Positions 27,271 to 29,512 of a DNA stretch of 50,279 nucleotides are shown here, piece by piece; within the stretch, counting starts at the first letter, position 1, and every line of letters begins with the position of its first letter. The DNA is from a virus: the IMG/VR virus record IMGVR_UViG_3300025924_000033; one strand, given 5' to 3'. The position numbers and the translations under genes are program-made. A model generated the notes under the pieces. That model ran no database searches and was not told the origin of the DNA. It saw nothing but the letters and a program-made list of their open reading frames with translations.

Positions 27271-28344
27271 ATGGCGGTGAGCTTGTATGACGTTCTTGGC
27301 ATGAAGAAGACGGCGACGGCTGAGCAAATCAAGAGCGCGTACCGGGCTCTCGCCAAGCGCTACCACCCGGACACCAACCCCGGGAACACCTTCGCCGAAG
27401 AGAAGTTCAAAGAGTTGGCCGCCGCCTACGCCGTCCTCGGTGATCCGCAAAAGAGAGCCAAGTACGACAGCGGCGCGGTTGGTGGTCCCATCACTCTCCA
27501 GACTCGCATGGGCCGCTTCGTCATCAACGGCAACGCATTCACTGGAGAAGTGGCTGACATCTACGAGGCCATCAAGGAAGATACGGGAGAAGTCTTCGCT
27601 CTGAAGGTCGCGCGATCGCCACGAGACAATGACCTCCTCGAGAACGAGGCGAAGGTCCTGAAGGAGATCTACCCTTCTGATGTCTCGAACCACAAGTATC
27701 ACCTCTACCTGCCAAAGCTGCTCGGGAGCCTGAAGATCGACGACGGCTCTCGCCGACAGGCGAATCTCATGCAGTGGTTGAACGGCTACTACTCTCTCGA
27801 GAAGGTTCGCGCCGCTCATCCAAGGCTGCAGATGGAGCACGGGGTTTGGATGTTCAACCGTGTGCTGGAGTTTCTCGGCTACCTGCACAACAAGCAGAAT
27901 CGAGTGCATGGGGCGGTAATTCCTCCCCACGTTCTCGTCTACGCGGGAACCCAAGAAAAAGACATCCTCAACCATGGCGCTCGGCTGGTGGGGTGGTCAT
28001 ATTCCGTGCAGGTGGGCGGAACGATCAAAGCCATTAGCCCGGAGTATGAGGCGTTCTATCCGCCCGAGATCTTCGCCAAGCGCCCAGTCTCGCCCGCTAC
28101 CGACATCTACATGGCAGCCAAGAGCATCGTCCACGTTCTTGGTGGCGACGTCCGCTCGAGTGCAGATGTCTACCCCGGCCACATTCCGAACTATTTTCTG
28201 AACTTCCTGAGAAGCTGCACCATCAAGTCGCCTGCATCCCGTCCGCAGGACGCGTGGGCTCTTCACCGAGAGCTCAAGGATCACATGCGGACTCACTACG
28301 GTCCTAAGAAGTATGTTCCGTTTCACATGCCCTCACCGGCCTAA
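27271..28344 (+). CDS. J-domain (DnaJ N-terminal) fused to a protein-kinase-like domain with degenerate catalytic motifs (probable pseudokinase) (357 aa)
   Basis: [34 protein letters not shown]...[22 protein letters not shown] with HPD tripeptide; kinase-fold landmarks FALKV (VAIK Lys), ENEAKVLKE (alphaC Glu), [11 protein letters not shown] (APE-like), [13 protein letters not shown], but HRD replaced by VHGAVIPPH and DFG by LVGWSYS. Confidence 0.65.
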
Positions 28345-28355
28345 GGAGAACGAAC

Positions 28356-29378
28356 ATGGGTGGATCACGTTGGAGCGACGAGGACTACAATCTCAGCGTC
28401 GGCAGCAAGCTCGATTCGCACGGCACCGCCTTCACCTACGATGCCGACGTCAAGGCTCGCAAGGTGGCCGCCGCGGTGGCGCCGAAGCTCGACCCCAAGA
28501 GCATGAAATCCAATCCTCTGGACCCGAGCGGCGTCAAGGTGCGCGAGAGCCGTGACAGCGACGCGCACCCAAACTCGAAGGGCGTCATCGTCGGCCTGGA
28601 CGTCACCGGCTCGATGGGCGAGCAGTCTCACATCGTCCACGGCCGCCTCTCGGCCCTGATGGGGCTCCTGACCCGCAAGGGCTACCTCGAGGACCCGCAG
28701 ATCCTCTACGCCGCCGTTGGCGACGCCTTCTCGGACAGGGCCCCGCTTCAGCTCGGGCAGTTCGAGTCGGGCGTCGAGATGGAGGACGACCTCTCGAAGT
28801 TCTGGATCGAAGGCGGCGGCGGTGGCACGGCGCAGGAGAGCTATGATCTCCTGATGTACTTCGCCGCTCGCCACACCGCGATGGACTGCTTCGAGAAGCG
28901 CGGGCAGAAGGGCTACCTCTTCATCATCGGGGACGAGTCGCCGTATCCGTCGATCAAGAAGACCGTGGTCAAGCAGTTCCTCGACATCGATATCGAGGCC
29001 GACATCCCGACCGAGCTCATCGCCGAGGAGCTGAAGCAGAAGTTCGAGTGCTTCTTCGTCCTGCCGACGCACGCCAGCAACGCCCGCGATCACCGCGTCG
29101 TCGAGAACTGGGGCCGCCTGTTCGGCAAGGAGCACGTTCTCAAGATCGACGACTCGAGCGGCACGCCCGAGCTGATCGCCACTCAGATCGGCCTCTGCGA
29201 AGGCACCACGGACGTCGACGCCGCTGTGACGGACATGAAGGACGTGGGCACCTCGGACTCGACGGCCATGGTCGTCGCCAACTCGGTCAGCAAGGCCTAC
29301 GCTGGCGGCAAGATCGCGAAGGTCCCGGCCGGCACCCTCACCCCGAGCTCCGCCTCCAGCGGGGCCAAGCGTCTCTGA
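28356..29378 (+). CDS. von Willebrand factor A (vWA) domain protein (340 aa)
   Basis: MIDAS motif VIVGLDVTGSMGEQ (DxTxS) with downstream Thr/Asp positions (LFIIGDES); TAAGGAG RBS. Confidence 0.6.
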   Translation: MGGSRWSDEDYNLSVGSKLDSHGTAFTYDADVKARKVAAAVAPKLDPKSMKSNPLDPSGVKVRESRDSDAHPNSKGVIVGLDVTGSMGEQSHIVHGRLSALMGLLTRKGYLEDPQILYAAVGDAFSDRAPLQLGQFESGVEMEDDLSKFWIEGGGGGTAQESYDLLMYFAARHTAMDCFEKRGQKGYLFIIGDESPYPSIKKTVVKQFLDIDIEADIPTELIAEELKQKFECFFVLPTHASNARDHRVVENWGRLFGKEHVLKIDDSSGTPELIATQIGLCEGTTDVDAAVTDMKDVGTSDSTAMVVANSVSKAYAGGKIAKVPAGTLTPSSASSGAKRL

Positions 29379-29512
29379 TGCGCGAGGGCGCGCACCTCAC
29401 AAAGACTGGGAAGGCGCTCTTCGGCATCTGGGCCGTAGGCGCCGTCTTCAGTCTTGCAATAAGCGCCGGCGTCATCTGGGCCGCCGTTCACTTCATCCGC
29501 AAGTTCTGGTAG
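29378..29512 (+). CDS. small membrane protein (44 aa)
   Basis: ATG overlapping vWA stop (TGATG); ALFGIWAVGAVFSLAISAGVIWAAVHFI TM helix. Confidence 0.35.
   Translation: MREGAHLTKTGKALFGIWAVGAVFSLAISAGVIWAAVHFIRKFW

Follow-up and report, generated by a model that had tools for sequence, protein, structure and literature searches.

The window analysed here, a stretch of 50,279 nucleotides from the IMG/VR virus record IMGVR_UViG_3300025924_000033, is part of a ~210-kb phage contig. It carries genes for a J-domain protein with a degenerate kinase-like domain, a von Willebrand factor A (vWA) protein with a variant metal ion-dependent adhesion site (MIDAS), and a protein with the fold of the adenylosuccinate synthetase PurA, hereafter called PurA-like (Table 1). 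These are real genes, and they form a conserved three-gene operon whose synteny extends over phages and four bacterial phyla. A full-text literature search found no description of a module of J-pseudokinase, vWA and PurA-like genes, which combines known kinds of component (a J-protein, a pseudokinase, a vWA adaptor and a PurA-fold enzyme) in an arrangement that we found described nowhere. A preliminary description, made from the letters of the window, had singled out the first two genes together with a small transmembrane (TM) open reading frame (ORF) behind them. All three frames lie where it placed them, and the coupling that it proposed is visible in Shine-Dalgarno-like motifs (AGGAGAG and AAGGAGA) ahead of the first two and in a TGATG overlap at the start of the third.

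Gene order was compared across 88 phage-type loci, made up of 80 IMG/VR loci fetched with a vWA profile and of loci fetched earlier, with all neighbours scored; K denotes the kinase-like gene (JK when it includes a J domain), V the vWA gene and P the PurA-like gene. The vWA gene is present in 88/88 loci and the kinase-like gene in 78/88. The PurA-like gene, found in 85/88 and in most bacterial loci, was omitted from the preliminary description, which thus coupled the pseudokinase and vWA genes correctly but drew the unit too narrowly. The next neighbour cluster, at 17 of the 88 loci, is made up of ORFs that lie across the vWA gene in a different frame and is taken to be spurious. Phages have two orders, K-V-P, usually with a J domain, and V-P-K, in which none is detectable. 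The order of the window is also seen in ET08/Bxz1, in metagenomic phages and on an Actinoplanes chromosome. Around 200 cluster C (Bxz1-type) mycobacteriophages carry adjacent homologues of the pseudokinase (32% identity) and the vWA protein (38% identity), followed by an 'adenylosuccinate synthetase' gene; in Mycobacterium phage ET08 the equivalents are gp247 (pseudokinase), gp248 (vWA) and gp250 (PurA-like). The record IMGVR_UViG_3300005535_000017 is 99% identical to the window across the locus, and the module occurs in at least 339 viral contigs.

The operon is equally a bacterial one. A scan of one genome per species located the vWA gene in at least 558 bacterial species, including Actinomycetota, Chloroflexota, Planctomycetota and Myxococcales, and the chromosome of Actinoplanes couchii carries the K-V-P operon. 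Bacterial counts given here refer to the best 80 of these at least 558 species' loci, among which JK-V-P or K-V-P is the dominant order and V-P without K also occurs. Across the family, the median spacer from the K stop to the V start is 21 nt. Because V-P pairs occur without a kinase-like gene, the vWA and PurA-like genes constitute the core of the module.

The position of the kinase-like gene can be filled otherwise. In Vibrio phage TDDLMA (locus L006, 4216-4935) and Rhizobium phage TM30 (L007, 3654-4445), a shared protein of 240-263 amino acids (aa) stands in the pseudokinase's place upstream of V-P. The two copies have in common the motif PPKV..LGF[DE][ST]G.M.[VL]RSL[MI]NMLP, noted by eye in BLASTP outputs; neither matches a Pfam or PHROG profile, and a kinase-like identity was discarded, no similarity being detectable. 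An apparent 1,498-aa fusion ORF in the Gemmataceae locus L089 was rejected as an artefact of long high-GC frames, the vWA protein there starting at its own MGGTRWSD. Public records name the genes of the module 'serine/threonine kinase', 'hypothetical protein' and 'adenylosuccinate synthetase', and the first and last of these labels are probably both misleading.

The N-terminal part of the first protein is a J domain with an intact HPD motif, as the preliminary description had stated. PF00226 scores 89.2 bits against a cut-off of 27.8 (E = 1.9e-25), and the family profile matches solved J domains at E ~1e-19. In the structural model, helices span residues 17-31, 40-56 and 59-66, with HPD (H32-P33-D34) between helices II and III; 62 relatives show no variation at H32 and D34 and keep P33 in at least 90%. 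To our knowledge, recruitment of DnaK is the sole established role of J domains, and it is for this reason that we infer recruitment of the host Hsp70 DnaK here.

The remainder of the protein, which the preliminary description took for a kinase fold to be checked by profile and structure prediction, is borne out as such by the model. Pfam Pkinase (PF00069) scores 26.1 bits on the window protein, under its gathering cut-off of 31.7; a PF00069 match is precomputed for many relatives, and PHROG places the protein in phrog_3043, 'kinase' (E = 4e-39). The protein was modelled with AlphaFold on the basis of 62 relatives, with a mean predicted local distance difference test (pLDDT) score of 94.8. The model's top Foldseek match in the PDB is the DNAJB1-PKA fusion (4wb7; E = 1e-16), with PLK1, Aurora, CaMKII and the CASK pseudokinase at E ~1e-11 and the GAK kinase domain also matched, and TM-scores normalised by target length are 0.7-0.8 against Aurora, Wee1, PLK1 and CaMKII. 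The modelled domain has the bilobal fold of eukaryotic protein kinases (ePKs).

Its catalytic residues are degenerate. The window protein retains the beta3 lysine (K112), the alphaC glutamate (E126), the APE glutamate (E266), D278 and R324, while HGA (A215) replaces HRD, VGW (G241) replaces DFG and the glycine-rich loop is down to one glycine. In an alignment of 128 distinct sequences, 63 from phages and 65 from bacteria, the HRD position holds aspartate in 0/128 (alanine in 115, glycine in 8, serine in 3, asparagine in 2), and the position of the catalytic-loop asparagine is histidine in 115/128. The DFG position holds aspartate in 98/128 and glycine or serine in 29/128, the window's clade being among the 29, and K112 and E126 are near-universal. 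Judged by the HRD and DFG aspartates, the family consists of pseudokinases, not kinases, as had been proposed for the window protein, and a nucleotide pocket has probably survived in it. When the kinase-like domain alone was searched against the full library, at least 463 clusters at 50% identity (E<=1e-30) were matched, nearly all with an N-terminal extension of J-domain size. In the metagenomic protein P0329 (704 aa), a canonical Ser/Thr kinase domain (HRDLKPSN, DFG) takes the J domain's place before the pseudokinase (VHAAV, LIGW); that kinase is apparently active, making P0329 a likely tandem kinase-pseudokinase.

The second gene encodes a vWA alpha/beta fold with a MIDAS-type motif, in agreement with the preliminary description. 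Its sequence features Gly2, RESRDSxxHP, DVTGS (the MIDAS), QxGQFE, EGGGGG, IGDE and a disordered C-terminal tail ending in KRL. Across 161 aligned family members, the variant MIDAS D82-V-T84-G-S86 and D193 (in IGDE) are invariant or nearly so, as are R63, D67, D123, Q132, E137, G155 and E161; the middle threonine of the MIDAS pattern (DxSxS...T...D) has no clear assignment in the family. Gly2 occurs without exception in the 156 sequences aligned at its position. Such invariance is unusual for a mere adaptor. Among curated profiles the protein has no Pfam match at E<=0.1 and none in NCBIfam or PDB sequence profiles, and its sole profile match is phrog_2971, 'unknown function'. In ET08 gp248 (L001, 6032-7816), an intein-like insert of ~256 aa lies immediately before the MIDAS strand with IGDE, with junctions KGY|C...SSN|C and a weak Hint match (E = 0.0016); many cluster C phages give the same two-piece vWA match, and others have no insert.

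The third protein is a full-length relative of PurA with an altered active-site signature. PF00709 matches it from end to end, yet it scores 167 bits against a cut-off of 402 with the NCBIfam PurA model NF002223 and 149 against 396 with TIGR00184. A PurZ identity was ruled out (NF038379, 44 bits against a cut-off of 300), and the label '2-aminooxy adenylosuccinate synthetase' given by PHROG applies at family level only. In an alignment of 33 module-linked sequences with Escherichia coli PurA, the family keeps G12, D13, G15, K16, G17, H41, Q224, D333, S414 and G416, with the P-loop, Asp13, His41, Gln224 and Asp333 retained in 32-33 of the 33. In E. coli PurA we take Asp13 and His41 to be catalytic, Asp333 to confer guanine specificity, N38, T129 and R143' to contact the 5'-phosphate of inosine monophosphate (IMP), and T301, R303 and R305 to hold the aspartate. 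It is around these latter sites that the module proteins have changed: N38 is Q in 33/33, T129 is C in 32/33, V273 is H in 33/33, S240 is replaced by W and R143 is variable. The TTGRRRR loop has become xWQxxFR, with one arginine left and a register uncertain by one residue. A phmmer alignment to solved PurA structures ends at residue ~283, short of the aspartate loop. The altered signature is constant from mycobacteriophage to Actinoplanes, and the protein appears to be a neofunctionalised PurA paralogue.

The small TM ORF between the vWA and PurA-like genes is a different matter. The relative L170 (67% identity) has a homologous 50-aa ORF at the equivalent position, with an identical C-terminal GVIWAAVHFI, so the overlapping ORF is probably a real gene, as had been suggested. 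It is not part of a conserved unit, however: it is missing from the relative L169 (65% identity) and from the distant loci examined, and ET08 gp249, at the equivalent position, is unrelated and not TM. On this distribution the ORF is a clade-specific accessory outside the conserved core. The hairpin that follows it has a minimum free energy of -28.4 kcal/mol over a 61-nt stretch (z -2.08). It fails the T-run rule of the terminator scan, with only a weak T-run 3' of it, and may act in attenuation or in stabilising the RNA.

Table 1. Genes of the module and further features of the window
Feature	Position	Strand	Details
ATP-dependent DNA-ligase-like gene	10458..11951	+	
Phage tmRNA and array of 14 tRNA genes	21662..22022 and 45966..50226		
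Papain-family C1 peptidase	24866..25666	+	E 5e-13
VanY/PG_binding_1 endolysin-like gene	26057..26785	+	
Shine-Dalgarno-like AGGAGAG	27260..27266	+	4 nt 5' of the ATG at 27271; read from the letters
J-domain protein, predicted pseudokinase, 357 aa	27271..28344	+	PF00226, phrog_3043, AlphaFold model, Foldseek
J domain, aa 5-66	27283..27468	+	
Kinase-like domain, aa ~76-357	27496..28341	+	
Shine-Dalgarno-like AAGGAGA	28343..28349	+	In the 11-nt spacer from pseudokinase stop to vWA start
vWA-fold MIDAS protein, 340 aa	28356..29378	+	phrog_2971
44-aa ORF, one predicted TM helix	29378..29512	+	Start inside TGATG, 1-nt overlap with vWA stop
GC-rich hairpin, 11-bp stem, UUCG loop	29520..29545	+	Between TM ORF and PurA-like gene
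PurA-like enzyme (adenylosuccinate-synthetase fold), 455 aa	29562..30929	+	PF00709, E 3.3e-62; third core gene
ATP-dependent DNA-ligase-like gene	30926..32359	-	Fused LigD_N 3'-phosphoesterase domain; convergent with PurA-like gene
Weak 2H/CPD-like match	32396..32833		tRNA_lig_CPD E 0.006
MVP-like protein, 931 aa	32837..35632	+	MVP_shoulder E 1.4e-23, weak Vault_3
PARP1/2-like gene	42473..43897	+	WGR + PARP_reg + PARP, E 3.7e-33

Directly 5' of the module, the window has a papain-family C1 peptidase gene with a VanY/PG_binding_1 endolysin-like gene, a pair that also precedes the module in the relatives L169 and L170. Of its two ATP-dependent DNA-ligase-like genes, one converges on the PurA-like gene and lies beside the weak 2H/CPD-like match. 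A phage tmRNA (tag ANDNVRVQSNLSAPLQAAA) and an array of 14 tRNA genes are present, as in Bxz1-type mycobacteriophages.

Genes of NAD and ADP-ribose (ADPr) metabolism adjoin the module in several independent lineages. With a dedicated hidden Markov model, 46 of the 80 bacterial loci, from three phyla, were seen to have an NrtR-type Nudix and winged-helix gene immediately 5' of the operon and in the same orientation; 13 of the phage-type loci also have an NrtR-like gene, L004 and L005, both Actinoplanes DNA, being counted among them. In phages with the V-P-K order (L018, L024, L025, L028, L030, L032, L043, L045 and L080), the few kilobases around the module contain NAMPT/NadV-like, NrtR-like Nudix and NDT-Nudix fusion genes, Vibrio phage TDDLMA has a NADAR gene beside it, and Rhizobium phage TM30 has phosphoribosyltransferase-like and cytidyltransferase genes there. 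In the window itself, a PARP1/2-like gene lies ~11.5 kb downstream. Nudix-HTH regulators have been proposed to switch on ADPr-responsive conflict operons with vWA 'chaperones' (Iyer et al. 2022, PMC9503650), a paper that does not mention PurA, adenylosuccinate or DnaJ. This context is suggestive of a link between the module and NAD/ADPr biology.

About 2-3.3 kb downstream of the module, the window also encodes a protein resembling the major vault protein (MVP). With the PARP1/2-like protein it makes two vault-type, NAD/ADP-ribose-linked, eukaryote-like proteins of this phage, and the MVP shoulder of eukaryotic vaults has been reported to bind ADP-ribose/NAD (preprint, bioRxiv 2026.05.01.722283). 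The MVP-like protein matched 3 of 50,697 phage records (the huge uncultured phages LR756500/501/503, ~35% identity), and its gene neighbours the module in the window and L169 only: ET08 has none, and in L170 none lies within 10 kb. A conserved partnership with MVP was ruled out: ET08 gp239 is not MVP, and MVP is outside the conserved neighbour clusters of the 88 phage-type and 80 bacterial loci. Given this rarity and missing synteny, the vault connection drawn in the preliminary description is left without comparative support.

We tentatively favour a nucleotide-centred module, although we put its chances at somewhat less than even, in which a PurA-derived ligase is the effector, the vWA protein its obligatory partner and the J-pseudokinase a DnaK-engaging regulator, the three proteins forming a complex. 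The PurA-like protein would be the catalytic output, as the GTP P-loop, the catalytic base and acid and the glutamine contacting the 6-oxopurine are retained. It probably still activates a 6-oxopurine nucleotide by GTP-dependent phosphorylation, and since the aspartate-binding arginine loop is lost and the 5'-phosphate site remodelled, it probably couples a different, non-aspartate amine and/or a different nucleotide. The vWA protein accompanies every enzyme of the PurA-like clade; with V-P as the minimal core it would be an obligatory partner, probably holding a protein or an acidic ligand at its metal site. The pseudokinase, predicted to be incapable of normal phosphorylation, would serve as a nucleotide-binding scaffold or switch, and the J domain of the main clade would couple the complex or its client to host DnaK. 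In phages, the most likely role would be the reshaping of adenine- or NAD-linked nucleotide pools or the countering of NAD/ADP-ribose-based immunity.

Several observations weigh against this proposal. The register of the aspartate loop shifts by one between two alignments and one arginine is kept, so that residual use of aspartate may be possible. The J domain is missing from the V-P-K order and from some K-V-P loci, which implies that coupling to DnaK is not essential to the core. The dedicated model detected no NrtR-like gene in the window, and adjacency to NAD genes could be incidental, because phage nucleotide-metabolism genes tend to cluster.

A stronger version of the proposal, which we think rather unlikely as it stands, is that jumbo phages and complex bacteria share a categorically new Hsp70-coupled nucleotide system, in which a PurA-derived enzyme, driven by GTP, ligates a 6-oxopurine nucleotide to a non-aspartate amine in an NAD/ADP-ribose-linked conflict between host and virus. 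The acceptor could conceivably be a protein amine, for example the invariant N-terminal glycine of the vWA partner.

The module might instead be a conflict system outright, acting in anti-phage defence in bacteria and in superinfection exclusion or as a decoy in phages. The vWA protein and the pseudokinase would then sense an invader protein or a disturbance of proteostasis, such as titration of DnaK from the J domain, and set free the PurA-like protein, whose effect would be toxic or signalling, through depletion of GTP/IMP or synthesis of an unusual nucleotide. Its patchy spread over four phyla and many phages, its self-contained layout of 3-4 genes and an NrtR-type repressor of the kind proposed for ADPr-responsive conflict operons with vWA 'chaperones' (PMC9503650) would all suit such a role. 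So would the variability of the third component, whose J domain is present, absent or replaced by an active kinase (P0329) and which in the Vibrio and Rhizobium phages gives way to a different protein of ~250 aa; DnaJ, moreover, is reported to mediate phage sensing by bNACHT25, in work cited in PMC12619734. Yet the vWA and PurA-like proteins match nothing in PADLOC-DB 2.0, where the pseudokinase has weak generic kinase matches only (PD-T4-6, E = 1.6e-8; mad6). Nor did the comparison of neighbours in the 88 phage-type and 80 bacterial loci, which was no test of defence-island enrichment, reveal a linked classical effector (nuclease, pore or NADase) or any other conserved neighbour. The presence of the operon in many species of Actinoplanes and related genera suggests vertical inheritance, and the phage copies sit amid nucleotide-metabolism genes. 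We regard this as unlikely, but as an alternative to be taken seriously.

It is also conceivable, if improbable, that the kinase fold is not dead and that it carries out AMPylation, glutamylation or small-molecule phosphorylation of the vWA protein, a host protein or the PurA-like product. The near-universal beta3 lysine and alphaC glutamate and the DFG-position aspartate of 98/128 members would allow for this, conserved His220 and His235 could form a new site, and SelO and SidJ are 'pseudokinases' with other activities (references in bioRxiv 2026.05.01.722283). The window protein, however, lacks both aspartates and has its glycine-rich loop reduced to one glycine; because 29/128 members lack the DFG aspartate, function survives its loss; and in one variant the fusion partner is a genuine active kinase, as in tandem kinase-pseudokinase pairs. 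There is less still to be said for the view that the PurA-like protein is an ordinary adenylosuccinate synthetase in an auxiliary role, raising the supply of AMP, and that its amount is all that the two upstream genes set. The full-length PF00709 match, the retained D13, K16, H41, Q224 and D333 and the annotation in phage records fit that account, but the score lies far under the NCBIfam equivalog cut-off, residues that bind aspartate and the IMP 5'-phosphate are replaced family-wide, and the alignment to E. coli PurA ends before the aspartate loop. Least credible, and very improbable in our judgement, is the scaffold of the preliminary description, in which J-pseudokinase and vWA protein recruit DnaK for host takeover or the assembly of phage structures, possibly an MVP-like shell, with the PurA-like gene unrelated: the J domain is canonical, the MVP-like gene does lie downstream in the window and L169, and help with folding and assembly has been proposed as a role for J-domain proteins of phages (PMC7824862), but the module is present in bacterial chromosomes, where takeover or assembly chaperoning fits poorly with operons under an NrtR-type regulator in Actinomycetota, Chloroflexota, Planctomycetota and Myxococcales, the MVP-like protein is rare and not a conserved neighbour, and the PurA-like gene is the most constant partner.

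Set beside the closest known architectures, logics and enzymes, the module departs from each for which membership could be tested in at least one defining feature. GAK/auxilin-2 and DNAJB1-PRKACA (4wb7) likewise join a J domain and an ePK fold in one polypeptide, but their kinases are active, whereas the family described here lacks the catalytic aspartate and is operon-linked to vWA and PurA-like genes; in GAK, the J domain lies at the C-terminus and functions in clathrin uncoating. The likeness lies in the architecture and does not reflect descent. Phage J-domain co-chaperones of RB43 and jumbo phages share the canonical HPD J domain and the expected engagement of DnaK (PMC7824862; PMC12619734), but they are stand-alone or have DnaJ-type C-termini, and none is described with a pseudokinase or this operon; the jumbo-phage survey (Aravind) notes DnaJ-domain co-chaperones only as sporadic in jumbo phages (PMC7824862). 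In MoxR-vWA pairs (NorQ/NorD, RavA/ViaA and a jumbo-phage pair), a MIDAS vWA protein stands beside an ATP-driven-chaperone device and acts on an enzyme client, as proposed here (PMC7824862; PMC9976466). Those pairs use AAA+ proteins, whereas here Hsp70 would be brought in through the J domain; no MoxR-class AAA+ gene is among the conserved neighbours in the 88 phage-type and 80 bacterial loci, and membership is ruled out because of its absence.

The TerY-P triad of Anantharaman et al. (2012) reportedly comprises the vWA protein TerY, a Ser/Thr kinase and a PP2C phosphatase. It resembles the module in the adjacency of vWA and kinase-fold genes in an operon and in the bacterial phyla concerned, and a related operon is DRA0331-0334 in Deinococcus (bioRxiv 2026.01.23.701218). 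Unlike TerY-P, the module has no PP2C or FHA gene, its kinase is degenerate and its third partner is PurA-like; with no conserved PP2C or active-kinase neighbour in the 88 phage-type and 80 bacterial loci, TerY-P membership was ruled out. PurA and PurZ share with the PurA-like protein the fold, the full-length Pfam match, the P-loop GD(E/A)GKG, His41, Gln224 and Asp333; the PurA-like protein differs in falling under both curated cut-offs, in its changed residues and in being always paired with a vWA gene. The ARG-centred NrtR-regulated operons (PMC9503650) have a Nudix and winged helix-turn-helix head, a vWA component and an overlapping spread in actinobacteria and planctomycetes, but the module has no ADP-ribosylglycohydrolase or phosphatase.

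If the proposed nucleotide-centred module is correct, it would provide a counterpart, based on Hsp70, to the adaptor logic of MoxR-vWA pairs, with a family-wide pseudokinase that has a defined enzyme partner, and its PurA-like enzymes would add a third functional branch to the fold of PurA and PurZ. The repeated NAD/ADP-ribose neighbours (NrtR, NAMPT, Nudix and NADAR) suggest a new player in an NAD-centred arms race. Being present in Bxz1-type mycobacteriophages and in culturable actinomycetes, the module is open to genetic tests; it represents a large, conserved and experimentally tractable operon with an enzymatic core that looks new and a function that we infer to centre on nucleotides.

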